This document shows, piece by piece, positions 33,948 through 64,000 of a stretch of 64,000 nucleotides of DNA. Both the position numbers and the translations under genes were made by a program. The stretch spans positions 160,001 to 224,000 of the forward strand of contig JAGVGF010000006.1 in the NCBI GenBank assembly GCA_020057295.1, read 5' to 3'. Position 1 is the first letter of the stretch. Each line of letters starts with the position of its first letter. The notes beneath the pieces were generated by a model. The model did no database searches. It worked only from the letters and a program-made list of their open reading frames with translations, and was not told where the DNA came from. The stretch is from an archaeon (lineage in GTDB: Archaea; Nanobdellota; Nanobdellia; Woesearchaeales; UBA9642).

Positions 33948-36900
33948 ATGAGGGATGGTTATAAAAAGAGGGGTCAATTCACAATATTTGTTATTGTAGG
34001 GATAGTTATATTCTTTATATTTTCATTTGCGATATATTCTAGAGCTAAGCTTGTTAGTACACAATTAACAACATTGGCCGATAGACAAATCAAAGAATAT
34101 ATTGATAGAAATTCTATTAATCAATATGTTACAAGTTGTCTGGATGCTGTAGCAAACGAAGCTATAATACAAGCAGGCATTCAGGGAGGAGTATATAATT
34201 TTAGTGGACAAACGTTAAACACAGATTATGTCTTATATACCGATTCATATCATAATCGTACAGTTAATCTTTCAATAGTTATCAAAGAAAATAACGGTTG
34301 TCCAGATAGCAGACCTGCATATCAATATGTTGTAACTCAAAGTCCGGGATTTTATCCATTCACTTTTGGAAATGTATATCTTAATGCTCTTGACTCATTA
34401 TACAAACCAGCATATGCTGGAGGAATAAATAATTGTACAATTAATAATTTTCATGAACATAGCGGTTTTTTTGGTGTGAATAATCTTTCAATACTTTGTG
34501 ATCTTAATGGTGCTAATACAGTAGATTTTAGATATGGTAATAGTAATTCTATCAGTTGTGATTATTATAATTATGAAAACACTTTGCAAGTTTCCATGCA
34601 AGATTTTATATCTCGAGAAGTTAATAAGTGCATAAATTTTACTGAAGTTTTAAAACGTAGTCCTAGTAATATTACACTAGTTGGCAATGTTAGTTCTAGA
34701 GTTTTGTTTGGTCAACAAGGAATGGAAATAACTTTAGAATATCCTTTTACAATTATGATGTTTAATCGTCAACCTGTTACTAGAATGTTTGATTTTACCG
34801 TAAATAAGAATATTGCATTCAAAGAATTATATGATTACACGTATGAGCTAGCTAACAATGAAGTTAAAGATATTAAATTTTATATCAACAGGAGTGGAAA
34901 TAGTATTACTAGTCGCAGTACACGAAGATTGGGTGAAGACGTTTTTAGTTCAAACTATATTATAGATATACATTCAGGTAATGCTTATAATAATTTTACA
35001 GATATAATTAGCGTAATTGATTATGATAATAAAATTAATGGTGAACCTTTAGTAATTAATTTTGGTATAAAAAATCGTAGACCTGCATTAGAATATATTC
35101 ACGAAGGTACATCAGATTTGTACGATGTGTTGGGTGTAGAAAATGAAACGATGATACTTACACCAGTAGGTTTTGATCCCGACAGAGAAGCTGACAATGA
35201 ACATTTAACATACATATATAATTTGTGGGCTGAAGATTATAAAAATGTTTACAATTACACAGATATTAAATGTCGTGAGCCCGACAATTTAAATTATATT
35301 ATTGCTAATTGTACTAATGGTTTTAATATTTCCTTATCAGGCGCACCACATAATTGGTCTAATTCCACATTATATATATCAACACAAACCAATGCAAGTT
35401 ATAGACCATCTAAAGAAGATACAGGATATCATATTGTTAGAATTACTATATATGATCGTAATAATTTATATGATTATCAAGATGTACGCATAATGGTATT
35501 TGATTTACCAACAGCTAAAATCAATGCAACAAACCTTTATGATGATATACCATCAAATTATACATCATATGAGGATGCATACATACTCAATGGTACAAAC
35601 TCAATTGCTGGAACAATCGCACAATCTATCGGTGCAACATTATCAACATTCACATGGAATGATAGTCAAGAACCATTCAATATCACCGTAGATGTAAGAC
35701 CAGGAATACAGTACAGAACATTATTTATTCCAAATATTAGCCTATTAACTTTTTCTCCAGATGTTGCAATATGGAATATCACACAGTATACGTTTGCAAA
35801 GAAGGGAGTAAGTTCTCAAATACACAATATATCATTAACCGTGAATACTTCAATGGGATTAAAACATACAGCAACATGGCAAGTAAATGTCACACAATGC
35901 GTTCCACATAAAGCAACACCATTTGTATATCCCTATCCTTATAATCCTCAACCGTATAATTTAATTAATTCACTAATGGCAAATCATACATGTTGCCTGA
36001 GCAATTATTCATACGCACCTAATACTGTAGAATGTTTTAATAATGTAAGATATGGATTAAACAGAACATTAACAGATTATAGATTTTATCCAAACATACC
36101 TCAAGATCCAAATGCAAATCCTTCATACAATATAGTTTATTCGGGAATTATTCTTGGAGATAAAACAGATAACGATATTTTTAGACAAACATTCTTAAGA
36201 AATTGTTCAGCAGATAGAGGAAACACATGTACTGGTCAAGCATCAGAAGAAAGAGAAGATGTTACAAAATGTGATGATAAAAATAATGGTGTTAGTAACA
36301 TATGGGTTTTTGGAACTTATGAAAGATGCAGTGGTCCTCCTATTGCTAATATTAATGTAAATTTATCAAGTAATCCTGGATGCATAAATTATGGCTCTGG
36401 ACAAACATTCGAAAAATTATCAGGAGCCGGAACAGGAAGTTGCACGGGAGCCAGCGGAAGATGTGCGACAGGCAATGGTCCTGCTGAATCATTCGGATTC
36501 GGCGTATCAGTATACAAATATAAATGTGCAGGCGGTTGTAATAGTGTTAATGGTAAATGTGAACCTACTAACTGTTTATGTGATAGAACTTGCGATGGTG
36601 GTGTTAGTAGCGAATGTGAAATTTATGGTCCCGGATCACACAACACAGGTAAATGCGACATTAATAGTATAGAGAAGGAATGTAATAATTGTAATTATCA
36701 AACAACAGGGAAATGTAAATTGACAGGATTAAATAATTGCAATGCAAATATAGATTGTGATGGAAAAACTCCTGGAATGGCAACAGGAAATTGTAACGCA
36801 GGAATAAATCCTGGAATTCCAGATAAATGTAGTAATTCTTGTGGTGTTGAAGATTTTGGAACAACATGTAGTAGTTCGTGTCCTGGAGTAGCAACAGAAT

Positions 36901-37136
36901 GTGATACTAAATCTCCTCTAAGTATTTCTTCTAACCCTAATAAGTACTGTAATGAGAATTGTCAACTGGAAGATTGCGGGGCACATATTCCAGATATGAG
37001 CGAACCAAGTCATTGCAAAACTCAATGTACATTTAATTCTGATTGCTCTACTAATAGTTGTTGTACAACACCCGGAAAGCTAAGATTTAGAGATTGTCTT
37101 GAAATAGGAGAAACATGCAATTCAGCACCATCATAA
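33948..37136 (+). CDS. Large class III signal-peptide (type IV pilin-like) protein with Ig/PKD-like middle and Cys-rich C-terminus
   Basis: KKRG/QFTIFVIVGIVI pilin-like N-terminus; YVTSCL....EAI...G.QGG; NRRP.L...GFDPD; C-terminal ~300 aa very Cys-rich. Confidence 0.8.
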   Translation: MRDGYKKRGQFTIFVIVGIVIFFIFSFAIYSRAKLVSTQLTTLADRQIKEYIDRNSINQYVTSCLDAVANEAIIQAGIQGGVYNFSGQTLNTDYVLYTDSYHNRTVNLSIVIKENNGCPDSRPAYQYVVTQSPGFYPFTFGNVYLNALDSLYKPAYAGGINNCTINNFHEHSGFFGVNNLSILCDLNGANTVDFRYGNSNSISCDYYNYENTLQVSMQDFISREVNKCINFTEVLKRSPSNITLVGNVSSRVLFGQQGMEITLEYPFTIMMFNRQPVTRMFDFTVNKNIAFKELYDYTYELANNEVKDIKFYINRSGNSITSRSTRRLGEDVFSSNYIIDIHSGNAYNNFTDIISVIDYDNKINGEPLVINFGIKNRRPALEYIHEGTSDLYDVLGVENETMILTPVGFDPDREADNEHLTYIYNLWAEDYKNVYNYTDIKCREPDNLNYIIANCTNGFNISLSGAPHNWSNSTLYISTQTNASYRPSKEDTGYHIVRITIYDRNNLYDYQDVRIMVFDLPTAKINATNLYDDIPSNYTSYEDAYILNGTNSIAGTIAQSIGATLSTFTWNDSQEPFNITVDVRPGIQYRTLFIPNISLLTFSPDVAIWNITQYTFAKKGVSSQIHNISLTVNTSMGLKHTATWQVNVTQCVPHKATPFVYPYPYNPQPYNLINSLMANHTCCLSNYSYAPNTVECFNNVRYGLNRTLTDYRFYPNIPQDPNANPSYNIVYSGIILGDKTDNDIFRQTFLRNCSADRGNTCTGQASEEREDVTKCDDKNNGVSNIWVFGTYERCSGPPIANINVNLSSNPGCINYGSGQTFEKLSGAGTGSCTGASGRCATGNGPAESFGFGVSVYKYKCAGGCNSVNGKCEPTNCLCDRTCDGGVSSECEIYGPGSHNTGKCDINSIEKECNNCNYQTTGKCKLTGLNNCNANIDCDGKTPGMATGNCNAGINPGIPDKCSNSCGVEDFGTTCSSSCPGVATECDTKSPLSISSNPNKYCNENCQLEDCGAHIPDMSEPSHCKTQCTFNSDCSTNSCCTTPGKLRFRDCLEIGETCNSAPS

Positions 37137-37235
37137 ATATTTCATTATAATAAACCAATATCAATTTGTGCTTACAAAACCAAAACATATTTAAATACTA
37201 TTGGTGGGTATTAGTGTTAAAAAGGTGGGTGTTTA

Positions 37236-40200
37236 ATGAACTTAAGGGTTTTAAAGTATTTTATAGTATTTATCCTCTTACTAAGCACGTTTATACTGGT
37301 TAATTCTTCTAATGTTAATGCTACATGTAATGTTTGGTTTAATGGTTGTTATAAGGATGCTAATGCATGTACTGTTGGTAGTGCTTCTTATAATCAATAC
37401 AAATGTAGACCATTTGTTGATGTTGATGCACCAATATGTACACTCGGTAATGATCCTAAATGTATGCCTGGATGTTGTTGTCCTACATCTGCTTCTGCTG
37501 AACTTACTCTATCTGGATTATGTAATGTTACTAGAGGAACATTTAATTCTGGTAGTTATACATTAACTCAATGTCAAAATTTTTGTTCTAGTGTGGTTGC
37601 TGGTAGCAAATATAATATTACAGGAACAGTTACAATAGTTGGTACAGGTCTTGTTTCTGGTGCACATATAACTCTTAATCCTAGTGCTAAAAATAATAAT
37701 ACTATTTCTGGTGGTACTTATTCTTTGTACAATGTTGATCCTGGAACGTACACTGTTACTGCAGAATATAGTGGATGTAATAATAATACTCAAGTAGTAA
37801 TTGTTAACTCTAATGTTGTTTCAGATATCACGATTAAGTGTGATTATTATAGTGTTAGTGGTAATGTGAATTATACTTCTGGCGGAATCTCTGGTGCAGA
37901 AGTTAAATCTAGTGTAGGAAATATTATTAGTGGAACAAATGGAGCGTATACTCTTAGTAATATTTTAAAAAATACTGCATTTGATATTACAGCTAATAAA
38001 ACAATTGGCGTTAATTGTTTCGGAACAATACATATTAATCCCGTACAAAGTAATCTTGTCGGACAAAATATTACTTTAGTATGTAATACTTATACTTTTA
38101 ATGGAACAATTAAGAAACGTGATAATTCTCCATTAAGCGATGCAACAGTAAGTAGTAGAGGAGGACTTACAACAGGCAATGCTGCAGGATTTTATAATTT
38201 TAATTCTGTAACTCCTGGAAGTATTACCGTAACTGCTGTAAAAAATGGAATCGCTGTTAGTGGTGGTATAATGAGTTGTAGTGGAGAGTTATCTTTTAGT
38301 TTAGATAATAATTATATCAACAAAGATTTTATTGTAACTTGTTGTACTGATAAAACTTATAAGAGTCCATGTATAGATGGTCAGATAGAAACTACTGTAG
38401 AAACAACATGTGATGATGGTAGACCTTTAACCAATACAAAGAGTTATGCACCATGTAGCGTTCCTACTGCTTGTGAATGGAATTTAACATGGACTGGATG
38501 TGCTGCTAATGCTGAAACTGAAAGTGCTGTTCCTGGTACTCCTGCAAAAATTATTGCTAATGGTTGTGATCCTAATATAATAACGCCACAGCCAGAATTA
38601 GTACGTGCATGTCCAACACAATGTGGTGATGGAAATTTAAATGTTTCTAGAATATTAAATGGTTTTGTAGTTCCTGAAACTTGTGATTATAATTATAAAA
38701 GTGGAATATATAATGTAAGTGATAGTTGTTTCGCTGCATGGCAAGCTGCCGATATTAGTAATCCTAAAAAAATAAATTTTAAGAGCGATTTAACAACAGA
38801 TGCTACATGTTACATTGGAAACTGCACATGTAAAACACCTCCTCCAAAAATAATTCCTACATGTGTTGACAATCCTGGTAATCTTAGTGACTTAAACATT
38901 TCTCATATTGCAATGCAGCACGCATTTAATGTCAGCTGGAATATAACTAATCAAAGCTGTGCAAATTATGTTTCAAACTTTAGTTTAAGAATTTGTAATA
39001 ATGCCACCGGTGCATGCATGGATGTACTAAATAATTATGTTCCAGTAAATAACAGTATTAGTAATAATAGTAGAGCATATTTACATAATGCTTCTGACAA
39101 TAAACCAATACCTATAGTTGAACTTACTGAATATTGTTATGAATTAACAGTTACGTTTAATGATAGTATTGTTGATCCTGCAAAACGTAAAAGCAGTATG
39201 ATTAAGTGTATTAAGGCTGGTGATGAAAAATGTATGAGCATACATACCGATAGTTGGTGTACAAGCAATAAGAAAACTAGTTGTTATGCAAATAATACAA
39301 TTAATATTGTTCCTACTATCTGCTCAGCTACAGAATTTTGTACAAACGTTAACGGAAATGCAGAATGTGTATATCAGCCAGAGTGCAATTTATGTAATGG
39401 TATCTTCGGAATATTAAGTTATAGTGAATTGAGAATACCTAGTCTAAGGTCAGATGCTAATTTAGGAAAACTAATATGGTGTCCTTCATTAGTTCATCCA
39501 AATCCTAATCCTTCGCAAGATTGGTTTGATTCAAGTAATCTTTATGGTTGTTACTTAGATTATTCTATGTCTACAACTGTTGATCAATCGTATGATTGTG
39601 ATAAAGTACTTTCTTGTTATAATTATTTATCTAAAGATTCTTGTGAAAATGATTATTGTAACAAATTTAATCAGACAGGAGCTAATGGTTGTGGATGGCA
39701 ACCATACAACGGGGATAAATCACTTACTCCTAACATTTTTGGTAAAGGTGTATGTAGACCTAAGAACGAATCCGAACAACAGTGCGGATTATGTAATGAT
39801 AATAATCCTTTAAAAGTTAACAGAATATTTAGTAATTGTACTAAAGACATTTGTGGATTATATGGTAACTGTTTCTTTAACACTAACGGAAACAATTGTA
39901 TGAATGCAAGAGATGTTACTTGTCCAACATATACACTTCAAGACGATTGTATAGGAACGAGCAGGAAAAATGTAAGTACGGTTGTTGATTGGAATCTTGT
40001 AGATGGTTTGTTAAGAAAAGTTAGCGGAACTAATGTAAGGATTAATAGTTCTGATGCTGTTGGCTTGGGCGTATGTTATTGGGATGGTTCATGTAAACGT
40101 AATACAGATAATAAAACAGACATAGTTGATTGTAAACCAATAGCATTAGGAGGAAAACTTACTATATGTACTAAAGATTATATTGCTCCAGTAACTAAAA

Positions 40201-43200
40201 TTACTAATCGTACAGCTTACGGATTATTAATGGACTTGAATGGCGAGATAGAAATACAAGATAATAATGCATGGCCGATAGGAGATTCAAGCATAGACAC
40301 TTCATATATTAATATCGGACCATCAAAGACAACATGGATGTATTACTGCGTGTCAGCATATGGTGTAGGTCCATGTTATCCTGATAATACTATGAATTTT
40401 ACTGATTCTCAACAAAAGTATAAGGTTAATTTAACTAACTTCGGTCTAAGCAATGCAAATAATAGTCAATTGTTTACGATGTATTATTTCTCTGAGGATC
40501 CTGCAAAGAATCTTGAATTAATAAAGAGTTTCACATTTAAGTTAGATACTGAAGGACCAAACGTTAATGTAAACATAGGACTTGATCCTTACAAATTAAG
40601 CAGAAATCAATGGTTAACAAATATTACTGTAGATTTACAAGTTGTTAACAACGAATTATCTCCTCCTGTAGAATGTAAATTTACAATGCATCCCCCAGAG
40701 ACTATTGATAGAGTAATATCATTCAATGGTAAGGAACAGTATAATATTCCTCGAAGAGATAATCCTTCAGATGTAAAAATATATAACATAGCTACTGACA
40801 GATTACATACAGCATATCCTGAATTAGTTAATGGCGCATATACTTGGGAGTTGGATTGTTTTGATGCAGCTAAAAATCCTACACATAAAACAGGCAGCAT
40901 TCAAATTGATGGAGATCTAAGAATTAATAACCCTATTCCAAAAACTAAAACATTTACAACAAGAAGTCTAGCTACTGGCACAGTACACACGTATCCTGTT
41001 AATATTAGTGTTAATACTACTGGTCCTGGATTGTGTAAATACAATGATACCACACCATCATTACCTTTCAATAGTGCTTCAATGATTTCAATGATTAATG
41101 GATCATTTAATGATACATTAAAAACACAACAACACAATGCAACTATAAATATTCCATTAAATGAACCTTATATTAATGGGACAGGATTATATTATTATTA
41201 CATTGCATGTAATGTAAGTATTAATAGCGAGTATAATGTTATTACTGGTGATGATTCTGATAATCCTGCATTTGCAATTGATGATGCAGCACCCGAGACT
41301 AAATTAATGGATGCTGGAAGAATTCCAATAAAAGAGTATAATAGCAGTATTCCAGCAAAAGATGGTTCAGTAGAAGATGTATTGAGGTTAATATTATCCT
41401 GTGATGATAATAATACATTATTGAGAACGTTATCGAATGCTAGCATGGCGTTTGGTTGTAATAATACAGCAAGATACTACTGTATATATAATAGTTCAAA
41501 TGATTGTACAAATACTGCAACATACACACAATTTACTAGTGATATAGTGTTGAACTATAATATACGTGATGGTCCAGATAAAAAAATGTATGGTAATAAT
41601 CCTAGAATATTCTTCTACAGTAAAGATCTTGGCGGTAATGTTGAAGATATAAAGTATGTTCAATTAAAGCTTAAAAATAATGTTTTAGAGAATCCTAATG
41701 TTACATTATACAATCCTTATGATATTAGTAAAGATATTATGAATATTACTGCTAGAGGAATAGATATTAATCAAGCATTAATTGCTATAAAAGTTAATTA
41801 TAGTGATGAAACTAATGTTAGTATAGCATCATTGTCTAAATATTATGAAGTTCATAAAATAGATAGCGATAATGCATATGTTCCATTAAGAGAAGATACT
41901 CCGCTTAATAATACTGGAGAATTCCTATTCTTTAGACAATATTGGCCTAATGGAAAATATAATTTAACTATTAATGCTACTGATGAAGATGGCAATAATA
42001 ATATTAATACTACAATATTCTATGTTGAAGCGCCAGAAAACTTTGTACAATTACAATCACCGGTATTAGGCATAGGAACTACAAGATTCTACAACATTAA
42101 TGTGTCAACATTATATGATAGTACATGCAAATATAGTACAAGTGTATATCCAGCATATATTAATCTTTCAGACTGGTATATACAGTTAGATTATAAATTA
42201 TTTAATATAACTAATGTTTCTGAGAATTTATATCATAATATTGCCAATTATGATGGTGATGCTAGCGGAACGTTATATGTAATATGTAAAACTATTGATA
42301 GTTTAGATGAAAGTAATAAATCGTATGTTATGACATCGTTCCCCGTAGGATATTTAACCACAAATCCTGTTGTTAAGAATATTACATTCATCGGCCAACC
42401 AACATTCGATCCATTTAATAGTACGATAATCAATGCATCATACAATGCAACAATAATTAAAGTTATTACAGACCAAGATACCGTATGTAGAATTAATGGT
42501 ACTAGCACAATATTAAACGTCTATAATATGATGTTAAATGGTTCTGGAGTTTTAGAAAATATTTCAGATTATAATAGTTACAGTACAACACACACATTAT
42601 TGATAAATTACAGTGGAAGACTAGGATCCACAATCAGCGGAGTATTCAATTATACTATTAATTGTACCAACCATGCACAGAGAACAATCGCAAATGATAC
42701 AAAGATATATCTAGATTTGAATTATCCTGCACCATCATTAACATACAGCGTAAATAATTCATATATAACTCGTAAGAGCATTAATGTAACATTCAACGAT
42801 CCTTACATTACAAATTATACTTATAGTATTATCACAAATATTGCAGATCCTTGTACATATCTTACTTCCAAAGCATTTGGAACAATACTAGATGTTAAAG
42901 AAACATCAAAAGTATGTGTCAAAGGAGTAGATGTTTTAGGAAGAGCAGATACTAAAACAATTCCTATAACTATTAGAAACTTTGATAGCGGAAATGTTAC
43001 TGTTATTAGTCCAAGATATTTAAAAGATAAATACATACTTGGTCAAACAGCAACATTTGATTTAGTTATTGATACTGATGTAAATGCTACATGTAAATAT
43101 ACTAAGGCTGCAGACTTCCTTGAGGGCGGAACTAATCCTTTAGATACACTATCATTTGACTACATATATAATGATGCTAGAGCTAAGTTAATGAATACTA

Positions 43201-54162: not shown

Positions 54163-54675
54163 ATGAGAAAAGGTCAAGTCGCAGGACAGATATTCATATA
54201 TATTATGGCAGTTATAGTAGTTGGTGGTATAGCCTTAATAGGATATTCTGCAATCAAAGGCATAGTTAGTAAGAGTTGTGATGCTGAAAAATTAACATTT
54301 AAGTCAGACATGGAATCATTAATAGAAAAATATACATCTTATGGTTCTGTAAATAATAAAGTAATTACTGCACCATGTGATTATGACACAGTATGTTTTG
54401 TGGATAGCAGTAAGATGGGAACAGATCTTACTTTATGTACTACAAATAATATTATCAAGGATAGTATACGTGTTGGTAGTTCTGATGGTAGTAGTAAAAA
54501 TATTTTTGTAATATCTGGAGGAAAAACTATAGGTATAGGATATAGTTCACTTATTAGCCTACCACTTGCTCAACAAAATAATTGTACATGTATTAAACAA
54601 CGTAATAAAAATTTTTATATAACATTTAATGGCAAAGGATCTAGTGCGGAAATAAGTCCATACACTCCGGGTTAA
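54163..54675 (+). CDS. Type IV pilin-like protein (class III signal peptide)
   Basis: MRKG/QVAGQIFIYIMAVIVVGGIALIGY; VCFVD motif. Confidence 0.78.
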   Translation: MRKGQVAGQIFIYIMAVIVVGGIALIGYSAIKGIVSKSCDAEKLTFKSDMESLIEKYTSYGSVNNKVITAPCDYDTVCFVDSSKMGTDLTLCTTNNIIKDSIRVGSSDGSSKNIFVISGGKTIGIGYSSLISLPLAQQNNCTCIKQRNKNFYITFNGKGSSAEISPYTPG

Positions 54676-54676
54676 G

Positions 54677-55714
54677 ATGAAAAATGCTTCTAAAATTAAT
54701 AAACTCAACAAGAAAGGTGTTGTGGATGTACAATTTAACTGGATATTTATTATGATTACAGGATTTGTAATACTTTTATTCATTGTTAGTATTGTTTTAA
54801 GTCAAAAGAAAAATTCTGATACACAAGCAGCCTATTCTTCTATGAATCAGATTGTTACAATACTTAAAGGCAAACAGCAAGCGGGAAACGTATATTCTGA
54901 AGTAAGCCTTCCAAAAACCAGTATGAGTTTTAGATGTGATCCGGTAACTAATTATTTTACATTTAAAATTGAAGATTCTGAAAGAATACAAATGCCTTTA
55001 GAAATAATATTTGGTCCTAGAGATGTTGTTAGTAGTAAGGTACAATTTTGGAGTCAATCATTTGATGTACCGTTTCCTGTAACTATATTCACATATATGA
55101 CTACAGCAAATAGTATTATAATGATTTATAACAATACAGACAGTTCTAATGCACAAAAATTATTTGATGATTTACCATCTAATGTTACAAAAAAGATAAC
55201 AACAGATTTTAACGTCATAAAAGATTATACTAAATATAAAATTGTATGTATCGAAGGTAGTTGTCCAACATCATCTATATCTAGAGAATACATTAAAATC
55301 AGTCCTGCTGCAGGATTGTATAGTTATGGTAATGTGACATTTTATACTAAAACTAACACCGTACAGGGAACTGTTCCATACATTTCCAAAGCTTCGCTTC
55401 TTGGAGCATTATTTAGCGATAATGCAGAGTATTATACGTGTCAAATGAATCGTGCAATGATTCAATATGAAGTTAAAAGATCATTAGTTGAAAAAAGATT
55501 AGAGTTATTATACGATGACTTAAACCCGGGACAATGCAAAGTAAGTATTGATGTAGCATTAAATGAATTAGTAATTCCTATGAGAAATAGCGTTTTAAGT
55601 TGGCCTAGTATCACAAATATTTATTCAAAATCATATGGTATAGATGCGGGATCTACAAGTCTTACCGTAAGTAATATGGATTTAACATTGGGTAGCTGTC
55701 CAAAAATATATTAA
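54677..55714 (+). CDS. Type IV pilin-like protein (class III signal peptide), 345 aa
   Basis: NKKG/VVDVQFNWIFIMITGFVILLFIV; GALFSD....Y.C.M..A. Confidence 0.75.
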   Translation: MKNASKINKLNKKGVVDVQFNWIFIMITGFVILLFIVSIVLSQKKNSDTQAAYSSMNQIVTILKGKQQAGNVYSEVSLPKTSMSFRCDPVTNYFTFKIEDSERIQMPLEIIFGPRDVVSSKVQFWSQSFDVPFPVTIFTYMTTANSIIMIYNNTDSSNAQKLFDDLPSNVTKKITTDFNVIKDYTKYKIVCIEGSCPTSSISREYIKISPAAGLYSYGNVTFYTKTNTVQGTVPYISKASLLGALFSDNAEYYTCQMNRAMIQYEVKRSLVEKRLELLYDDLNPGQCKVSIDVALNELVIPMRNSVLSWPSITNIYSKSYGIDAGSTSLTVSNMDLTLGSCPKIY

Positions 55715-55762
55715 AGATATAATAAAGATAAAACAAAATCTGAAAAGTAATCTGGAAAAAAT

Positions 55763-56260
55763 ATGTTGATAAAACGTAAAAACGGACAAGTACAACTTGG
55801 AGAAAGTACGGCAGTGATCGTTGTAGTTATTATAATCCTGTTTTTCGGAATAATATTCTGGAACAAAATTAATAGTTCAGATATACAAAAGATAAATACT
55901 GAATCTCAGGAATTATCTGTTATAGAAATTGCGAATATAGTTTCTGAACTTCCAGAGCTAAAATGTTATGAAGTTAATGTTAACAAGATAAAATGTTTAG
56001 ATTGGTATAAAGTATTAGCGATGAATGCCACAGTAAATAGTAACGGACCTAATTATGAATTCTACAATAACTATTTCAAAAATTCAAAAATCACAATAAG
56101 GCAAATATATCCGACCAGCGTTAATATTACAATATACGATTCAAAACTTAGCAATAACACTAAAACATTGCTTATACCCATTCCCGTAAACATTAAAGAT
56201 TACGTACATAAAACAACAGGATATGGTCTAATAATTGTAGAAGGATATTACAAAGGCTGA
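55763..56260 (+). CDS. Type IV pilin-like protein (class III-like signal peptide)
   Basis: RKNG/QVQLGESTAVIVVVIIILFFGIIFW; LPELKC...CLD..K. Confidence 0.72.
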   Translation: MLIKRKNGQVQLGESTAVIVVVIIILFFGIIFWNKINSSDIQKINTESQELSVIEIANIVSELPELKCYEVNVNKIKCLDWYKVLAMNATVNSNGPNYEFYNNYFKNSKITIRQIYPTSVNITIYDSKLSNNTKTLLIPIPVNIKDYVHKTTGYGLIIVEGYYKG

Positions 56261-56261
56261 A

Positions 56262-56780
56262 ATGAACATCAGACACAATAAAAAGATTAAGGGACAAATA
56301 GAAATATTTGGCTTAGCGGTGATTGTTATACTTATATCAATAGGATTTTTTATATTTGTATCGCTTAAAGCGCAACATCCAACAGAAAATCCTCAAAAAG
56401 AGTATACTAATGACAAGCTTGCTAACGATTTTGTATTATCAATATTAGATGTTAATGTAAAAGATTGTGATACCTTTACTCTTAAAGATTTAATCGTAGA
56501 TTGCGGCAGAGATAGAAAGATAGATTGTGGAGGAACATCTTCATGTTTCGCTGCTAATAAAACAATTACAGACTTGCTTAATGGAACTTTTATGGTCATG
56601 AATACTAAATTTAGATTCTATTCTGAAAATCTTAAAGATAACGCTGGTAGAGAAATCATTAATATAACACATCTTAATTGTACATCTAATATGCGTCAAG
56701 GACAAAGGGGTACAGCAATAATATCTTTATACCCTTGGCCCAACAATGTTTATTTAAATATGAATATCTGCTATCAATAG
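56262..56780 (+). CDS. Type IV pilin-like protein (class III signal peptide)
   Basis: KKIKG/QIEIFGLAVIVILISIGFFIFV. Confidence 0.78.
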   Translation: MNIRHNKKIKGQIEIFGLAVIVILISIGFFIFVSLKAQHPTENPQKEYTNDKLANDFVLSILDVNVKDCDTFTLKDLIVDCGRDRKIDCGGTSSCFAANKTITDLLNGTFMVMNTKFRFYSENLKDNAGREIINITHLNCTSNMRQGQRGTAIISLYPWPNNVYLNMNICYQ

Positions 56781-56946: not shown

Positions 56947-57528
56947 ATGATGAATCTACCAGATAAGGATCCAAAAAGCCAAAGATTAGCATTATTACTA
57001 AAGATAATGGTATTCGTACTATTACTTATAGGAGTATTACTGCTTACAGGATATTTGAAGAAGATAATGTTATTTGTCAATCCAGACATTGAAAACTGTA
57101 AAGGCGGTAGTTGTAGAGATTCATGTATTAAGGATCAAGAAATAATGAATAATAATGCTGCATGCAGCGATACAAGCAAAGTCTGCTGTGTAATTAATGA
57201 TAGAACTCCGAGTGCTGAATGTGTAGGATACACTAAAGGGTATGTCTGCGGTAGACTGATGATATGTGATGCTGACTTAGTTTGTGTGAGTAGATGTGAT
57301 TATTGTGCACAAAATCCTGATGATAAAGCATGTGTTATAGATGCAGAAGTAGTAACCATCGGTGCTAGCGTAACTAAATTTGATGATAAATTCACGTGTG
57401 GTTGTACAGAAATGGACTGTAACAGTTTTGATAATAGTAAACTTGGAACATGTGTTAAAGGATTCTGTCCTTCAGATGTGCCTGTAGCAACTAACTATAT
57501 GTGTTGCGTAAATCCTTATAAGAAATAA
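56947..57528 (+). CDS. Single-TM Cys-rich protein with defensin-like six-Cys motif; paralog of 60738..61355
   Basis: TM, then CKGGSCRDSC-x12-C-x6-CC; CDYCAQNP...FTCGC...C...FC...CC. Confidence 0.72.
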   Translation: MMNLPDKDPKSQRLALLLKIMVFVLLLIGVLLLTGYLKKIMLFVNPDIENCKGGSCRDSCIKDQEIMNNNAACSDTSKVCCVINDRTPSAECVGYTKGYVCGRLMICDADLVCVSRCDYCAQNPDDKACVIDAEVVTIGASVTKFDDKFTCGCTEMDCNSFDNSKLGTCVKGFCPSDVPVATNYMCCVNPYKK

Positions 57529-57551: not shown

Positions 57552-58370
57552 ATGTTAAAAAAAAATACTCGTGGAATGTTTAGTCAACTATTAGTTATTG
57601 TATTGATATTAAGTGCAGCTATACTTATAATGTTAGTAGTTATGAAATTTTTATATTCTAATAACGCCAAAGGTGCTATTGATACATGCAGATTTAGTGT
57701 AGTTGCACAAAGCGCTACAGCACTTAAAGTAGATTCAAGCGGATTGACAAGTCCTATAGCAATTAATTGTGAGAAACGATACGTTAATTTATTCAATAAT
57801 AAGGTGGAAATAGGAAATAATCCTGAAGATACAGATACTGCTCAAATAGTATATAATAATAAGCCCGTAAAGAAATTTTTAGAATTAAACGACTTTATTG
57901 TTAATCAAATTGTCGCTGAAGAAATGAGAATATGCTGGTATCAATTTGGCCAAGGAAGAGTTAAAGTCTTTGCAAATGATAAAAACGTACTTGAAAATAG
58001 CAATGTTTGTTTCATATGTTCTGAGATAAGTTTTAAAGATAATATGGGTAAATCAGAATTTGTAGGATTAGCAGATTATCTTAATCAAACATATATTGCT
58101 AATGAGAAAATGACTTATTACCAATACTTAAATGATGCTTCAATGTCTGCCGAAACTTTTGAACAGTATAATAAAGATGCAAAAAGTTCTGGAAAGACAA
58201 ATATTTATGATATTAAATTATATAAGGATAAAACTTATTATATTATCTTTAAGAAAGGAGACTGGACCTTTAGGAGTAGTTATAGATTTTATCCTATAAT
58301 TATTTCTTCAGATGAAATTAATGGTTATGATGCATATGATCACTCTTTATGCGATATGCAGGCAACATGA
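57552..58370 (+). CDS. Type IV pilin-like protein (class III signal peptide), CW..[FW]G.G family
   Basis: NTRG/MFSQLLVIVLIL; CRFSV; IVAEEMRICWYQFGQG; VCFICSEI. Confidence 0.75.
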   Translation: MLKKNTRGMFSQLLVIVLILSAAILIMLVVMKFLYSNNAKGAIDTCRFSVVAQSATALKVDSSGLTSPIAINCEKRYVNLFNNKVEIGNNPEDTDTAQIVYNNKPVKKFLELNDFIVNQIVAEEMRICWYQFGQGRVKVFANDKNVLENSNVCFICSEISFKDNMGKSEFVGLADYLNQTYIANEKMTYYQYLNDASMSAETFEQYNKDAKSSGKTNIYDIKLYKDKTYYIIFKKGDWTFRSSYRFYPIIISSDEINGYDAYDHSLCDMQAT

Positions 58371-59281
58371 AATCTAAAGGCATAGCATTTAATAATTTAT
58401 TATTGATACTTTTAGCTATGGCTGCTCTAATATTATTTAGTCTGTTCTTATACAATAAATATGCTGATACAAGAGATATGCTTGCTGTACAGAATTGTAG
58501 AAATAGTATTGCAGCACATTCAGTAGTTGCTAAGGGAACATTTAGTCAGATTTTTACAGATGTAAAATGTCCTACAAGAGATATAACTTTAGGCAAAAGT
58601 CAATTAAAAGATTCTAAAAGAATTATTGCTGAAGATATGCATCGATGCTGGTATGAGTGGGGTCAGGGCAAAGAACAATTGTTCCAAGGTGATGGAATGT
58701 TTTGTCACATCTGTGCCACATACACTTTTGATGAAAAAGGACAAAAAATTGATGGATTTATACACTATCTTGCTAGTACACCAATGTATGTCAAATATCC
58801 TGGTGATACTCTAGGAATAAAATATTTAGATTATATGAATCCATATCATACAGAAAATGCTGAACAAATGATTCAGAAAAGCGATCAGGTTATTACACCG
58901 TACGATTATATTAACACTTCAGCACAATACACTACTGTAATAGTCTATGCTTCAGGAAAAGAACAAATACAGAAATTTCTTGAAGGCGGAACAAGAGCGA
59001 CTGTCGGCACTATAGGAGGTCTAGCATTAATTGCCGGTTCTGCCGGATCAGCATATATTGTTGGTAGTCTATTATTACTTAGCAATCCTGGAGGATGGGT
59101 AGTATTAGGAACAGTCGCATTATTAACTCTAGGCTATGAAGCAGTAGGCCTAGCGACTAATGTTAAAAATCCTGAATGGGTTTCATTTATGGTTTTTAGA
59201 CCATACAATGTCGATGAATTATCAAATCTTGGATGTCAAAAGCTTGAAGCTAACCAAGTATCACACGCACCAAATAAATAA
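58367..59281 (+). CDS. Type IV pilin-like protein, paralog of previous gene, with Gly-rich hydrophobic C-terminal hairpin
   Basis: ATGA overlap with previous stop; KSKG/IAFNNLLLILL; CRNSI; IIAEDMHRCWYEWGQG; FCHICAT; LLLSNPGGWVVLG. Confidence 0.75.
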   Translation: MKSKGIAFNNLLLILLAMAALILFSLFLYNKYADTRDMLAVQNCRNSIAAHSVVAKGTFSQIFTDVKCPTRDITLGKSQLKDSKRIIAEDMHRCWYEWGQGKEQLFQGDGMFCHICATYTFDEKGQKIDGFIHYLASTPMYVKYPGDTLGIKYLDYMNPYHTENAEQMIQKSDQVITPYDYINTSAQYTTVIVYASGKEQIQKFLEGGTRATVGTIGGLALIAGSAGSAYIVGSLLLLSNPGGWVVLGTVALLTLGYEAVGLATNVKNPEWVSFMVFRPYNVDELSNLGCQKLEANQVSHAPNK

Positions 59282-59369: not shown

Positions 59370-59525
59370 ATGATTAAAATGATAAAGTTTCATAAGAAGG
59401 GAGAAGCAGGAGAGGGTGCTGGATTCGGATTAGGAAATTTTGCGCAAATAGCACTTCTCGTAGGAATATTTTTAATAATATTAATTATATCGATAGTAAT
59501 ATACAATAAGATAAGCACTCCTTAG
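59370..59525 (+). CDS. Small pilin-like peptide (48-51 aa), not in supplied ORF track
   Basis: MIKMIKFHKKG/EAGEGAGFGLGNFAQIALLVGIFLIILIISIVIYNKISTP*. Confidence 0.62.
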   Translation: MIKMIKFHKKGEAGEGAGFGLGNFAQIALLVGIFLIILIISIVIYNKISTP

Positions 59526-59560: not shown

Positions 59561-60142
59561 ATGAACAAAAAAGGTATAACAGCAATACTCCTTGTGGTTA
59601 TAGGATTACTTATTTTATTACTAATAATGGTTGGATGGGGTAAATCATTATATGAAGGTATTGTGTCTTGGAGTAATACTTATGAGAAGCCTAAGTTAAA
59701 TTATGATAATGCGTTCTTATTTAATGCACAGTACGTTAGTATTAATGAAAGTGCAGATTTTAAAGCTAAATGTTCTGGTGGAACAAATAATCAGTATATA
59801 TGTACAAAACCTGTAAAAGTATTATTTTATGTGAACATAAAAAATATCGGTTCTAAGATGCGTGTATTATATCCTAACCCCATAATCGATTCCTGTAAAG
59901 GAAGTAATTGTCAAGAATATGTAAGAGTTGGTGGAAGCAGGTCTTGTGCTGTAACTCCAGGAACAGATATACTATGCGAGGCTGGAGAAAATGAGTTTAA
60001 TACGGCAGGAACATATAGAATTTATCCTGCAGTATTTTGTAAAATTGACGATCCAATCAATGGATGTCAAAAGACAGGGATAAGCAGTCCAATATACTCT
60101 TATAATAAGGATAGCTGGATAGAAATCACTATTCAGCCTTAA
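59561..60142 (+). CDS. Type IV pilin-like protein with C-terminal Ig-like domain
   Basis: MNKKG/ITAILLVVIGLLILLLI; V.IKNIG...G.YRIY...C module shared with 61361..62113. Confidence 0.72.
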   Translation: MNKKGITAILLVVIGLLILLLIMVGWGKSLYEGIVSWSNTYEKPKLNYDNAFLFNAQYVSINESADFKAKCSGGTNNQYICTKPVKVLFYVNIKNIGSKMRVLYPNPIIDSCKGSNCQEYVRVGGSRSCAVTPGTDILCEAGENEFNTAGTYRIYPAVFCKIDDPINGCQKTGISSPIYSYNKDSWIEITIQP

Positions 60143-60227: not shown

Positions 60228-60467
60228 ATGAAAAAGCAAGGTGTCGAGTTAAGTATGAATGTTATTATAATTGCAGCTATAGGATTATTAGTTTTAGTCA
60301 TATTAGCAGTACTAGTTATAAATTCTGGAGGTAGATTCCAGGGCGGTACACAATCATGTTCTGTAAAGGGCGGAGTATGTTCAGCTACATGTTCAAATGG
60401 CGAGCTTAGCGGCGGAACATGTGAAGGTAGCAACAGATGTTGTAAGATATTTACACTGAGTCCTTAA
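60228..60467 (+). CDS. Small pilin (candidate major pilin) with beta-defensin-like six-Cys head
   Basis: GAGGTG RBS and upstream TTTATAAA; MKKQG/VELSMNVIIIAAIGLLVLVIL; CSVKGGVCSATCSNGELSGGTCEGSNRCC. Confidence 0.8.
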   Translation: MKKQGVELSMNVIIIAAIGLLVLVILAVLVINSGGRFQGGTQSCSVKGGVCSATCSNGELSGGTCEGSNRCCKIFTLSP

Positions 60468-60510: not shown

Positions 60511-60762
60511 ATGTTTAAGTCCAACGGTAAAGGTGTCGAGCTAGCGTTTAACACAATAATTCTTATCGTTATCGGACTACTTGTTCTATTCGTTATAGGA
60601 TTTTTTATAATGCGTGGAGGAATGACATTCAATTCTGGAACATCATGTGAAGGCAATGGCGGAACATGTATACCATTTACTAGCACATGTGGTGAAGATA
60701 AACAATTAGCAGCTTGGAGTTGCGGAAGTAGTCAAAGATGTTGCGTTACAAAAACAATATAA
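60511..60762 (+). CDS. Small pilin with beta-defensin-like six-Cys head; paralog of previous gene
   Basis: GKG/VELAFNTIILIVIGLLVL; CEGNGGTCIPFTSTCGEDKQLAAWSCGSSQRCC. Confidence 0.8.
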   Translation: MFKSNGKGVELAFNTIILIVIGLLVLFVIGFFIMRGGMTFNSGTSCEGNGGTCIPFTSTCGEDKQLAAWSCGSSQRCCVTKTI

Positions 60763-61355
60763 AAAAGAAGGGAATGAGTGATATGGTTCTTGGACTAATT
60801 ATTAGTCTAGCAGCCATAATACTTCTAGTTATTGTTATAACAAATATATCAAAGAGTGCTAATAAAAATGTACAATGCGGTGGGTTAATTAGCGGAACAT
60901 GTGAAAAAACATGTTCTACTGGGAAATTACCAACATTAGATATAGGAGATGCTTGTGCTAACAGAAAAGACGGGTTAACTACTTGCTGTGCTGGTTTAGA
61001 TGTTTCTAAGAGTACAACCAGTAATGATAATACTGGTAATGAATTATGTCAAACTAGAGCAGTTGGTGCTGATTGTAGTACACAACAATATTTTTACAAA
61101 GTGTGTAATGCTACAAAACAGTGCGTATACAAGTGTGAATATTGTGCACAAAATCCTGGTGTAAGTGGATGTGCTGGATTTAAAAGTAATAATGATAAGC
61201 TTGTAACATTCAATAGTCAATTTAGTTGTGGATGTAGCAAAGATCAATGCACAGAGAAATCTAAGACTGGTAAGTGCTTAATTAATACAGTACCTCAAGG
61301 ATTCTTTTGCTCTCCAAACTTGTATTGCTGCGAGGTTCCAAATCCTTCAGGATAA
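60738..61355 (+). CDS. Pilin-like Cys-rich protein with defensin-like motif
   Basis: KKKG/MSDMVLGLIISLAAIILL; C-x7-C-x3-C-x13-C-x9-CC; CEYCAQNP...FSCGC. Confidence 0.75.
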   Translation: MLRYKNNIKKKGMSDMVLGLIISLAAIILLVIVITNISKSANKNVQCGGLISGTCEKTCSTGKLPTLDIGDACANRKDGLTTCCAGLDVSKSTTSNDNTGNELCQTRAVGADCSTQQYFYKVCNATKQCVYKCEYCAQNPGVSGCAGFKSNNDKLVTFNSQFSCGCSKDQCTEKSKTGKCLINTVPQGFFCSPNLYCCEVPNPSG

Positions 61356-61360
61356 ATTTT

Positions 61361-62113
61361 ATGAAAAAATATAATAATCGTGGAGAAGTGAATTGGGTTT
61401 TGGTACTAATAGTTGGTCTTATAGCTGTATTAATAATTGTTTTAATAATTAGATCATGGGGTAAGAGTGCGGATAATAATTTCAAGACATTATCTAACTG
61501 CGGATCATTAACGGGCGGAATGGGATTCTGTAGAGTTGAATGTAAGGAGGGCGAATTAAAGTATCAAAACTTTGGCGGATGTCCTCCTAAAGATGATTCT
61601 GGAGCAACATTCTGCTGTATCAATCCTGATAAGAGTGTAAGTTCTGTTCTACCAGAAGAATTTGGAGGCAGTGATACGTATAATTTTAAGATAAAATATA
61701 TTGGATTCCTATATAATGCAAGTGAAGCTATGCCTACAAATTGTCATTTGATTTCTGGAAGTACTGTTAAGATGCAATGCACAAAAGGAATAGGAATAAC
61801 TTTACCCATACAGATAAATATACAGAATGTTGGTACACAACCGTTAGATGTATACGGTCTTCCAATGGTCACAATTAATGATAATTACAATACTATGACT
61901 ACTCCTGCTAACGGTAATACTTTAACAAAATTAGCAGTAGGAGGGGCTGAAAGTAGTGTAGCTAAAATTGTTATTGAACCTTCTAAGGCTAACGGGTTTT
62001 ATAGAATTTATGGATATGCAAAATGTGAAACCCAAGAATGTAAAAATACCAATCCTAAAGGAGTATTAAGAAAATATGATGATAATGCATATATCGAAGT
62101 CACATTCACATAA
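61361..62113 (+). CDS. Pilin-like protein: defensin-like motif plus Ig-like domain
   Basis: ATG at 61361; NNRG/EVNWVLVLIVGLIAV; C-x9-C-x3-C-x12-C-x10-CC; INIQNVG...GFYRIYGYAKC. Confidence 0.75.
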   Translation: MKKYNNRGEVNWVLVLIVGLIAVLIIVLIIRSWGKSADNNFKTLSNCGSLTGGMGFCRVECKEGELKYQNFGGCPPKDDSGATFCCINPDKSVSSVLPEEFGGSDTYNFKIKYIGFLYNASEAMPTNCHLISGSTVKMQCTKGIGITLPIQINIQNVGTQPLDVYGLPMVTINDNYNTMTTPANGNTLTKLAVGGAESSVAKIVIEPSKANGFYRIYGYAKCETQECKNTNPKGVLRKYDDNAYIEVTFT

Positions 62114-62118: not shown

Positions 62119-63684
62119 ATGGTTTCATTAAATAATTCTAGGAAAGGGAACTTAGTATTACAATTTGTAGTTTTATTGATAATAACTTTAATAATGATTT
62201 TTGTGATTTCAGCTTTTGGAGTAAAGATATTTGAAGGATTCTTCCCAAGTACTGATTCTTCAACAACTAAAAGTTTCACAGCACTATATACAGCTATGAA
62301 TACTAAATCGTTAAGCACTAAAAATTATGATTCGGTAAAATTAGGAACATATATTGCAAAGGATCACGGAATATATTTCTTTGATAACAGTGCAACAGGA
62401 TGTATAAGAGGGATAGTTAAAATATCTAGACCTACAGCATGTGATGGAAAAGCGAGCTGTTTGTGTTTACTTAAAGGACCTATAGAACATAGCGGAACGC
62501 CTGCAGATACTGATAAATATGTTAAAGTATGTAAAGATTTTAATCAAACATTCTCGATAAATCAAGATACTTTGAGTTTGTACAATTCTGGATGTGGTAC
62601 ATCTACAACTAATCAGTTCTATAATATTATAATTGCGCATACTGGCGAAAAAACAATGGTTATAATGGAAAGTAATGAGTCCAGTCGTAAATATGACGAT
62701 GAAATGAAAAAATTAACATGCCCTACGATAGCGGATAGTGTATCGCCTTCGTATATATGTTCTGGAAAGAAAGATGGAGAAATACTCACAGGTAAAGAAG
62801 TGTTTGATGCATGTAGTGAATACAACAAGACATGGAATGTATTTGTTGCAGAATGTAAATATGATACTAATAAATATCCTAAACGTTGTGAATTAAATTG
62901 TGAAAAGTGGAAATTTGATTGTGAAACAATGATACCAAATTCCGACACTGGATGTGACGCATATAATCAAGGAGGCATAGTAAGAGTTAATGATCAAGAT
63001 TATAAATATCTTCTGGAAGGAAATTTAAACACTGATAAAAGTTATGGTGAAACAAGTAACTATTTCGCATGTAATTTAGACTTGGAAGCATGTCAAATCA
63101 GTAAAAATGGAAATGGTTGTGAGGCAAAAACGGCCGCAGATATACCTTCTGTAGGAACAGGACAATCGTATATGAAATGTTATGAGAAAGGGCAATCATT
63201 TGACGGTAAAGCTGATGCTAGAAAAGCTGTAAATATTCAGAAAATACAATTATCTGGAAATTCTATTAAAGACGGTTCTTGTAAAAAAATTAATTCTAGC
63301 GAATCTGTAATTATAACAAAGAAAAATTCTGATGTTTTTACAAACTATAACGTTTACAAATGTAAGCCTGGATCTGAAGTATCTTTTGAAACAGTCGTAG
63401 AAAATAAAGCAACATATCCTATGAAACTCAGAGCTTTTACTAAACTTGTACAACTGGATGATAGTGTTCCTGCAGTGAGAATGCCAGCAAGTTCTTTGGG
63501 AGAAGTCACAGATGCAGAGATTGGACAAACTACAATATTACCATCAACTATTACTCTAACAGCGGATTTAGGATGGTATTATTCCATTACACCTTCAGTA
63601 ATAATAGATGGAGAAACAACTCCTATAGATTCTTTATCTAGTACACTAGACACTAGATTTTATATAGAGATTAATGACAAGTAG
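62119..63684 (+). CDS. Pilin-like Cys-rich protein (521 aa) with C-terminal Ig-like domain
   Basis: SRKG/NLVLQFVVLLIITLI; RP.AC.G..CLCL motif; C-terminal beta-rich domain. Confidence 0.72.
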   Translation: MVSLNNSRKGNLVLQFVVLLIITLIMIFVISAFGVKIFEGFFPSTDSSTTKSFTALYTAMNTKSLSTKNYDSVKLGTYIAKDHGIYFFDNSATGCIRGIVKISRPTACDGKASCLCLLKGPIEHSGTPADTDKYVKVCKDFNQTFSINQDTLSLYNSGCGTSTTNQFYNIIIAHTGEKTMVIMESNESSRKYDDEMKKLTCPTIADSVSPSYICSGKKDGEILTGKEVFDACSEYNKTWNVFVAECKYDTNKYPKRCELNCEKWKFDCETMIPNSDTGCDAYNQGGIVRVNDQDYKYLLEGNLNTDKSYGETSNYFACNLDLEACQISKNGNGCEAKTAADIPSVGTGQSYMKCYEKGQSFDGKADARKAVNIQKIQLSGNSIKDGSCKKINSSESVIITKKNSDVFTNYNVYKCKPGSEVSFETVVENKATYPMKLRAFTKLVQLDDSVPAVRMPASSLGEVTDAEIGQTTILPSTITLTADLGWYYSITPSVIIDGETTPIDSLSSTLDTRFYIEINDK

Positions 63685-63738
63685 CATCCACTATTAAAAT
63701 CGATACCTATTTAAACTTTCATTCTATATTTATAGTGT

Positions 63739-64000
63739 ATGTTTAGACGTCTGGGAAAGAAGGGTGATGAGAGTAAATTAATGTTTCTCATGTGGGAAGT
63801 TATTGTGTTAGCAATAGTTGTTATTGCATTGATTGTGGCGGTGAGAAGTGTTGCTAATAATAGTAGTTTCTGGAAGAAGTATTATTCTTATGACCTTGCA
63901 ATGATTACTGAATTGGAGCATACTAATCAGGGCGATTTTATTATTAATTACAAACTTAAAGAATATACAGGCATAGCTAAAAGTTTAGGTTTAGTTAGTG
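63739..64000 (+). CDS. Pilin-like protein, 3' truncated by window end
   Basis: TATTTAAA about 24 nt upstream; MFRRLGKKG/DESKLMFLMWEVIVLAIVVIALIVAV...YYSYDLAM, open to the window end. Confidence 0.7.
   Translation, partial: MFRRLGKKGDESKLMFLMWEVIVLAIVVIALIVAVRSVANNSSFWKKYYSYDLAMITELEHTNQGDFIINYKLKEYTGIAKSLGLVS

Follow-up and report, generated by a model that had tools for sequence, protein, structure and literature searches.

A conserved block of pilin-like genes closed by a predicted peptidoglycan amidase in a Woesearchaeota-like archaeon: a candidate surface device directed at bacterial cell walls

A stretch of 64,000 nucleotides (nt) of archaeal DNA, referred to here as the window, contains most of a gene block in which a giant anchored surface protein lies among many smaller proteins whose N-termini resemble those of type IV pilins. 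The window corresponds to G000:C3:160001-224000, where G000 is the source genome (1.2 Mb in 6 contigs, 31% G+C, completeness rating 100%), other G-numbers are the genomes of relatives, and C gives the contig number within a genome. When the contig is read beyond the window, the locus extends from window position 33948 to the equivalent of position 69801 (C3:229801), about 36 kb, and comprises 20 open reading frames (ORFs) separated by -25 to +166 nt (Table 1). The products of 18 of the 20 begin with what we call a class-III-like N-terminus, a designation of pattern only, in which a basic leader and a Gly precede a hydrophobic helix. The original prediction, made from the window, had described a 30-kb locus at 33948-64000 with closely spaced genes on the + strand, fifteen of them with such a leader, and an anchored giant between the first two of these, 13 nt from the next start. 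The ORF listing and its translations agree with this content: every sizeable ORF is on the + strand with the spacing just given, every listed start was reproduced, and the giant gene occupies 37236-54149 (5637 amino acids, aa). The end of the locus is the part of that description that did not stand, since another 5.8 kb lies past the window edge and contains the remainder of ORF 63739 (304 aa in all) and three further class-III-like ORFs of 178, 180 and 1332 aa. The last of these is predicted to be a peptidoglycan hydrolase, and it is this combination of prepilin-like N-termini, a wall-cutting domain and conserved gene order on which our interpretation is built.

In the fifteen in-window ORFs the translated leader is basic, 3-22 aa long, and followed by Gly and then a hydrophobic stretch of about 20 residues. 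The two residues before the predicted cut are [KR]G in thirteen, NG in the ORF at 55763 and QG in that at 60228; a further example of the leader reads GKG/VELAFNTIILIV, the slash marking the predicted cut here and below. For a genome-wide comparison a crude, ATG-only gene call was used (1257 ORFs), in which all 20 locus ORFs have an N-terminal hydrophobic segment. Within this set, [KR]G is found no more than 14 aa before the helix in 16 of the 20 locus ORFs, as against 26 of the 265 other ORFs that have an N-terminal hydrophobic segment (Fisher p = 9e-12), and many of those 26 are pilins encoded beside ATPase loci. The leader pattern in the locus is far above chance.

The behaviour of the site among homologues is perhaps more telling. 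Sequences were aligned for P3 (31 sequences), P6 (34) and P5 (60, for which the alignment summary was used), these being, with P4, four small conserved genes that follow the giant. Across the P3 and P6 alignments the leader ranges from 2 to about 55 aa and the [KR][G/A/S]/Q site is fixed. In P3 the leader has 4-35 aa, the residue at -1 is G, A or S, Q5 is nearly invariant and Cys is conserved, and in P6 the residues Q12, E14, G17, L18 and five Cys are invariant, one further Cys is nearly so, and position -1 is occupied by G in 28 of the 34 sequences, by S in 4 and by A in 2. For P5 the summary reports Q9 and E14, and no other residue, as nearly invariant. An acidic residue at +3 or +6 is fixed in both P5 and P6, QFNWIF is nearly invariant among P4 homologues, and relatives have G, A or S immediately ahead of the predicted cut. 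Because the site stays fixed in P3 and P6 while the length of the leader varies, we read this pattern as the strongest computational sign of a prepilin signal that would be cleaved.

The last gene of the locus is, judged from its sequence, a pilin-like protein that carries an N-acetylmuramoyl-L-alanine amidase domain. Amidase_2 (PF01510) matches aa 227-399 of the 1332-aa protein with an E-value of 8.6e-24 (84.8 bits, against a cut-off of 26), chains of AmpDh2, AmiD and AmpD align with it as the closest solved relatives, and the motifs aligned with those of AmpDh2 are preserved (IVIHYT, AYHAG and IIGHDQI..SDPGP). The His/His/Asp metal-site motifs of Amidase_2 presumably supply the zinc-binding residues. 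A match to SLT in the same protein is weak (E 0.044); outside the locus, at G000:C5:31487-32014, a distinct open frame of 342 aa encodes an SLT lytic transglycosylase domain.

When this terminal protein was searched in 151 genomes of the order, matches at E <= 1e-5 were found in 51, and in the 25 genomes examined the match is a large protein that closes a run of small pilin-like genes. A peptidoglycan-hydrolase domain lies above the Pfam cut-off in 17 of the 25 (Amidase_2, M23, NlpC/P60, SLT, 3D or M15/VanY, often two of them), a share that may be inflated given that the 25 proteins were gathered by similarity to the hydrolase-bearing one of G000, although most matches of that search fell in N- or C-terminal parts that are non-catalytic. 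Three more have sub-threshold signs of a hydrolase only (VanY in G018, M23 in G094 and an SLT-like region found by local seed search in G006), and one, in G110, has GH3, NAGPA and phosphoesterase domains behind a Sec signal. The heads appear at the same place in different proteins, for example Peptidase_M23 with SLT in G010 and NlpC/P60 with a weak glucosaminidase in G016; SLT is above cut-off in six of the 25 positional counterparts (G010, G124, G042, G078, G079 and G085), and GDSL esterase, GH3 or NAGPA domains are added in some terminal proteins. G000, rated complete, has no match to Mur_ligase_M, and because of this it should make neither murein nor pseudomurein peptide stems. The amidase thus points to bacterial murein as the probable target, and not to a generic host.

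The machinery that a type IV filament would need is present elsewhere in the genome. A genome-wide look for a prepilin peptidase, a pilus ATPase and a platform protein, proposed along with the original prediction, found one Peptidase_A24 gene by profile search (C3:75245-76111, 53 bits), a family also present in 38 of 41 relatives, and two T2SSE/T2SSF loci. There are four T2SSE ATPase matches and four T2SSF platform matches in G000, with ATPase/platform pairs at C3:43.2-46.6 kb and C5:97.9-101.5 kb; each of these machine loci has one ATPase, two platform genes and pilins of its own of the KG/QAALEF type, and each is at least 150 kb from the pilin-like locus or on another contig. The second machine locus, within C5:89216-108721, is flanked by pilin-like proteins of 137-891 aa and three lipoprotein-like genes. 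Similar neighbourhoods hold a hydrolase in G104 (Muramidase and Amidase_2) and in G161 (SLT), and Pfam gives no match for the corresponding G126 protein or for the G000 counterparts (580 and 901 aa).

The order of the genes is well conserved. Matches to P1, the first gene of the locus, occur in 40 of 41 relatives, many of the distant ones covering the N-terminal helix only; full-length orthologues align at 28-40% identity in 13 relatives and at 35-49% within the genus and family. Gene order was read from up to 40 kb downstream of P1 in nine relatives. Four of them (G010, G013, G016 and G018) keep the whole block in the same order, namely P1, one to three very large secreted proteins, P3-P6, a run of small pilin-like genes, three further small pilin-like genes, the large terminal pilin-like protein and an RPA-like gene, with P3-P6 inverted as a group in G018. 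Part of the block is seen in G003 and G006, where contigs end, and in three members of other families of the order (G014, G024 and G040), which keep P1, giants and P4-P6, P3 being recognised by sequence in G014 and G024 and not in G040. Gene order is therefore kept, as expected if the genes belong together in the way first proposed, within genus, family and order at protein identities of 22-50%. Small genes of the type found at 60228 and 60511 are present two or three times in tandem (80-86 aa each) in G010, G013 and G016, the gene at 57552 has orthologues in six of the nine relatives fetched, and the 51-aa mini-protein at 59370 has no homologue among them. On a broader scale, a small pilin-like run ending in a large terminal protein is found in 25 genomes of the order.

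Homologues of individual members of the block are at most labelled "hypothetical protein". There are 39 homologues of P3, all unnamed or "hypothetical", and 20 of P4, the named ones being hypothetical proteins of "Candidatus Woesearchaeota archaeon"; named sources are mostly Candidatus Woesearchaeota, Nanoarchaeota or Nanoarchaeia, and the organism is, by the measure of these sequences, Woesearchaeota-like. A search of the ESM Atlas with P1 returned only unnamed woesearchaeal clusters (scores 0.84-0.87). Contigs with P6 homologues titled "uncultured Methanosarcinales archaeon" or "Alphaproteobacteria bacterium" were also encountered, labels that look like placeholders or mis-binned woesearchaeal contigs. 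P5 is the most widespread: its family numbers 774 representative clusters at E <= 1e-3, belongs to no Pfam family, and was detected, nearly always in one copy, in 263 of the 301 genomes that sample the phylum (261 of 299 without two unpublished genomes), which are all labelled as same order or same class.

The giant protein has a Sec-type signal peptide, and its description as anchored is borne out by one transmembrane (TM) helix at aa 5373-5392 followed by a cytoplasmic tail of about 245 aa. Its sole Pfam match is CarboxypepD_reg at aa 128-200. The first approximately 1500 residues match a separate "protein A" of relatives, which has about 1200 aa, about 6% Cys, a signal peptide only and a CarboxypepD_reg-like domain near aa 130-250. 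From aa ~1555 to 4960 the giant consists of about five complete copies and two partial ones of a module of 510-610 aa, and these match the N-terminal part of "protein B", a separate gene in relatives (1040-1660 aa, with a signal peptide and a C-terminal TM helix), whose C-terminal part, including the TM helix and cytoplasmic tail, is matched by aa 4997-5637. Since its parts match two genes that are separate in relatives, the giant is best described as an A-B fusion with module amplification, and since the module copies are only 22-35% identical to each other, the duplication is old. Comparable sizes were reached in other ways in G014 and G040. We also considered whether the giant alone might explain the locus, as a generic adhesin operon, and rejected this, because the hydrolase and the conserved set of pilin-like proteins speak for a composite device.

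Table 1. Genes of the locus, with positions in the window or, past its end, on contig C3 of G000; a slash marks the predicted cut
Gene product	Position	Strand
P1, 1062-aa class-III-like protein, MRDGYKKRG/QFTIFVIVG..., large Cys-rich ectodomain; first locus gene	33948..37136	+
Giant surface protein, 5637 aa, Sec signal peptide, TM helix and tail, ~7 tandem modules	37236..54149	+
P3, 170-aa class-III-like protein, MRKG/QVAGQIFIYI..., first of the four conserved small genes	54163..54675	+
P4, 345-aa class-III-like protein, ..NKKG/VVDVQFNWIF.., largest of the conserved four	54677..55714	+
P5, 165-aa class-III-like protein, ..RKNG/QVQLGESTAV..	55763..56260	+
P6, 172-aa class-III-like protein, ..KIKG/QIEIFGLAVIV..	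56262..56780	+
193-aa membrane protein, N-terminal hydrophobic segment, no Gly site; paralogue of 60738; absent from the original list	56947..57528	+
272-aa class-III-like protein, ..NTRG/MFSQLLVIV.., paralogue of the 58367 gene	57552..58370	+
304-aa class-III-like protein, MKSKG/IAFNNLLLIL..; ATG upstream at 58349 also open	58367..59281	+
51-aa class-III-like mini-protein	59370..59525	+
193-aa class-III-like protein, MNKKG/ITAILLVVIG..	59561..60142	+
79-aa class-III-like protein, small Cys-rich head, tandem paralogue of 60511	60228..60467	+
83-aa class-III-like protein, tandem paralogue of 60228 (41% identity)	60511..60762	+
205-aa class-III-like protein, Cys-rich head	60738..61355	+
250-aa class-III-like protein	61361..62113	+
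521-aa class-III-like protein	62119..63684	+
304-aa class-III-like protein, cut by the window end	63739..64000 (continues)	+
178-aa class-III-like protein, beyond the window	G000:C3:224669-225205	
180-aa class-III-like protein, beyond the window	G000:C3:225253-225795	
1332-aa pilin-like predicted peptidoglycan amidase, MFNNKRG/QLFVVVV..., last locus gene, beyond the window	G000:C3:225803-229801	

Several observations concern the surroundings of the locus. An RPA-like gene with an OB-fold (single-strand-binding) directly follows it at G000:C3:229941-231074, and such a gene follows the terminal protein in 22 of the 25 genomes of the order examined (G000 and 21 of 24 others), so the junction between a block of surface proteins and a replication gene is unusually stable. 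Upstream, at window 30650-33839 on the + strand, lie genes for SecY, a DUF106-like membrane protein and ribosomal proteins L34e and L14e; the same four are found in G003, G014 and G016, and G013 shows the last three, SecY being outside the fetched stretch. On the - strand, window 15469-29811 encodes four large secreted proteins in a row (700, 1287, 599 and 2093 aa), of which the 1287-aa one has a class-III-like start; a segment of some 200 aa in the 2093-aa protein recurs in the giant (aa 5019-5212). A smaller second cluster at G000:C4:44278-58244 contains two P1-like paralogues (787 and 775 aa, KRG/QVTIFVI...) together with secreted proteins of 1530 and 1090 aa.

Structure prediction adds some detail. 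The AlphaFold2 (AF2) model of P6 is confident (predicted local distance difference test score, pLDDT, 91.3) and has a helix at 12-37 that starts exactly at the predicted +1 Gln (Q12), a second helix at 44-63 and an alpha/beta head, a modelled lollipop plan that is compatible with a pilin. The AF2 model of P1, a protein with no Pfam family, is poor (mean pLDDT 58.7, predicted template-modelling score 0.41); in Foldseek it aligns with tandem immunoglobulin/cadherin-like arrays, including an RTX adhesin extender and the grappling-hook protein of Aureispira, at a template-modelling score of ~0.1, which gives a weak hint that P1 may be a beta-sandwich stalk. A four-chain prediction with the soluble parts of P4, P3, P5 and P6 had a median score of 0.71, the partner-replaced controls scoring 0.00 and 0.00 and the chain-1-replaced control 0.52, a result that speaks neither for nor against binding.

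The reading we favour, and to which we would give an even chance, is that the locus encodes a surface device that resembles a type IV filament and is aimed at the walls of bacterial cells, which displays P1 and the murein hydrolase and in which the anchored giant takes part in holding and opening a bacterial partner. Several steps can be envisioned: the A24 peptidase would remove the leaders; one of the two ATPase/platform machines would lift the hydrophobic N-terminal helices from the membrane and, by stacking them, build a short pilus or pseudopilus; a priming or tip set may be provided by the four conserved small proteins (54163-56780), and the repeating, candidate polymerising subunit by the tandem 79- and 83-aa proteins; the fibre would carry the large pilin-like proteins P1 and the hydrolase; and the giant would grip the partner cell so that the hydrolase might open its wall. 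The original prediction had likewise proposed a composite pilus with a giant adhesin for host contact. None of the findings on the leaders, the peptidase, the ATPases or the gene order refutes that proposal, and the words "pilus" and "adhesin" go further than these findings, no pilin model or fold match having been obtained.

A number of results weigh against the favoured reading. Genes for an ATPase, a platform or a peptidase are absent within and next to the locus, just as had been noted earlier for the window, and pilin genes of their own already accompany both machines. Pfam gave nothing above cut-off for any of the small locus ORFs, Class_IIIsignal (PF04021), Pilin_N and TadE-like included, and NCBIfam gave no match for nine locus proteins and one canonical pilin; the Pfam Class_IIIsignal family is, however, a poor test in this lineage, because the canonical pilins of G000 also score below its cut-off (13-17 bits against 23.7). 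When the P6 model was compared with the PDB by Foldseek there were 0 matches at E <= 1e-3, so that its head matches no known pilin fold. Four of the 25 terminal proteins have no hydrolase domain (G056, G068, G121 and G136), and the way in which the 25 were gathered has been mentioned above. Public sequencing runs listed for the stretch include no RNA run and one DNA run (0.21 share of words).

Further contrary results come from five genomes of other orders in the class (G235, G303, G264, G287 and G340; 0.5-0.9 Mb), from each of which 40 kb were fetched. All five have a reduced core consisting of a P1-like protein of 250-268 aa, a Cys-rich secreted protein of 1100-1370 aa (sometimes two such pairs) and P4-P6, where P5 was located by profile match and P3 was recognised by sequence in G287 only. 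No terminal hydrolase was found within the 40 kb fetched, and in all five the core lies directly upstream of a gene of the surface-layer (S-layer) family, PF05124 being over cut-off in four. What is nearly universal is therefore the small core and not the whole 36-kb block. This core may have a general link to the envelope, and its place beside an S-layer gene agrees equally well with a common envelope structure and with a weapon. The S-layer homologue of G000 itself is on another contig (C4:162219-164633).

The first alternative is that the locus encodes a fixed cell-envelope complex with no filament, in which the class-III-like N-termini, cleaved or not, act as membrane anchors and the small proteins build a scaffold, embedded in the membrane or linked to the S-layer, on which the giant, P1 and the hydrolase are held at the cell surface. 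The position of the reduced core in five of five other-order genomes would be natural for such a complex, as would a single-copy P5 in 263 of the 301 phylum genomes, which is typical of a housekeeping envelope part, and SecY, the DUF106-like gene and the two ribosomal protein genes precede the locus in G000 and four relatives; the missing pilin fold and hidden Markov model matches, and the missing ATPase in the locus, can be counted on the same side. What a plain signal anchor hardly explains is a leader of variable length before an invariant [KR][GAS]/Q..E site. Moreover, the tandem 80-aa helix-plus-knob proteins look like fibre subunits, and both the peptidase and the ATPases have been retained, in G000 as in 38 of 41 relatives. 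We consider a filament-free envelope complex somewhat unlikely, while taking it seriously.

A second alternative is a feeding device of the bindosome type, in which proteins with pilin signals would remain near the membrane and digest free murein and debris for uptake, with no attack of one cell on another. The bindosome of Sulfolobus, for which class III signals on non-pilus proteins have been described (PMC4858521), provides a precedent, and the diversity of the hydrolase heads, with GDSL esterase, GH3 or NAGPA domains added in some terminal proteins, would be in keeping with it. However, G000 has no member of PF01182, the glucosamine-6-phosphate deaminase family (Glucosamine_iso), no transporter or binding-protein gene was seen among the locus ORFs, and an anchored repeat protein of 5637 aa is not expected for nutrient uptake, all of which makes a feeding device improbable. 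That the N-termini are ordinary signal anchors on genes that cluster without shared function is the least credible explanation, since positive residues ahead of an N-terminal helix are indeed common in membrane proteins, but neither the [KR]G enrichment (p = 9e-12) nor a gene order kept from genus to order at 22-50% identity, which already disfavours it, would then be accounted for.

Returning to the bacterium-directed filament-like device, a wider and more doubtful proposition can be built on it, which we put forward tentatively: most Woesearchaeales, and perhaps the wider class, might partner with or prey on bacteria rather than archaea by means of one ancestral stalk derived from a type IV filament, primed by four universal small pilin-like proteins and equipped with interchangeable murein-cutting heads and giant adhesins that would open the wall at the site of contact. 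If true, this would be a cross-domain attack device without a described counterpart. Woesearchaeota and their kin are among the commonest uncultured archaea. A conserved pilin-like block that ends in a predicted wall-cutting enzyme, the exchange of that enzyme's head between relatives and the absence of murein synthesis in the organism together turn "host attachment" into a concrete hypothesis, namely a bacterial partner approached with the plan of a type IV filament.

Among bacterial systems, type IVa pili are primed by a complex of minor pilins and PilY1, and type II secretion systems have a GspH-I-J-K tip. The four small pilin-like proteins described here, one of which is about twice the size of the others and which stand beside large non-fibre proteins, are reminiscent of those sets, and differ in that no sequence or fold similarity was detected and that the envelope in question is the single-membrane envelope of an archaeon. 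Modular pilins offer another point of comparison: PilB of Streptococcus sanguinis (PMC8179133) joins a pilin N-terminus to a displayed functional module, as the terminal protein would do, whereas here the module is a predicted peptidoglycan hydrolase and the protein has 1000-1400 aa in total; no pilin module of this kind was found in the literature searched.

The closest archaeal parallel is "system 1" of the type IV filaments, exemplified by the Epd pili of Methanococcus maripaludis (Makarova 2016, PMC4858521; PMC13705601), which, as described there, resembles the locus in having many proteins with class III signals, including large adhesin-like ones. As in G000, Epd-type systems have pilin genes apart from the ATPase and an ATPase accompanied by two platform genes, and their motif of a +1 Gln and an acidic residue is seen on the canonical pilins of G000 (KG/QAALEF) (PMC4858521, PMC13705601). 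For DPANN, a 2026 census (PLoS Genet, PMC13705601) describes scattered type IV filament genes, ATPase and platform being neighbours and the pilins lying elsewhere. Unlike the Epd system as presented in these sources, about 18 pilin-like genes are gathered here in one 36-kb block that also encodes a predicted murein hydrolase and the anchored giant of 5637 aa, with no PF04021 match above cut-off.

Large murein hydrolases are already on record for this lineage. Extracellular lytic-transglycosylase proteins (fam00969) of Woesearchaeota and Pacearchaeota are reported within "Module 98", a set of 51 lineage-specific families (Castelle et al. 2021, PMC8204110), and "vampiristic" Woesearchaeota with large lytic transglycosylases have been described (Vigneron et al. 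2022, PMC9723730). The terminal proteins resemble the fam00969 type in lineage, in being large surface proteins with murein-cutting domains and in belonging to archaea without murein; the G000 protein differs in having Amidase_2, with SLT at just E 0.044. The words "pili" and "pilin" are absent from the main text of both papers, and no description of a prepilin N-terminus, of head swapping or of the surrounding cluster was found there. A recent study of bacteria-killing archaeal peptidoglycan hydrolases (PLoS Biol 2025, PMC12352652) reports that archaea without murein encode Amidase, M23 and glucosaminidase domains and that Nanoarchaeota are rich in them. Sec and Tat signals were the only ones scored in that study (32% of 210 proteins), "pilin" and "class III" being absent from its main text. 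The hydrolase considered here differs from those proteins in that its putative export signal is prepilin-like and its gene is the last of a conserved cluster, which suggests that surveys limited to Sec and Tat may overlook the way by which many peptidoglycan hydrolases of archaea leave the cell.

In the literature searched, no paper was found that describes the cluster or links a hydrolase to a prepilin signal, although the supplementary family lists of PMC8204110 and PMC13705601 may bear on this. Large woesearchaeal murein hydrolases are already published; of the pilin-like cluster that surrounds them, that literature yielded no account. What the present analysis adds is the pilin-like amidase at the end of the locus, the swapping of heads among its counterparts, the absence of a Mur ligase, and the recognition of the giant as a fusion of two genes with ancient modules.

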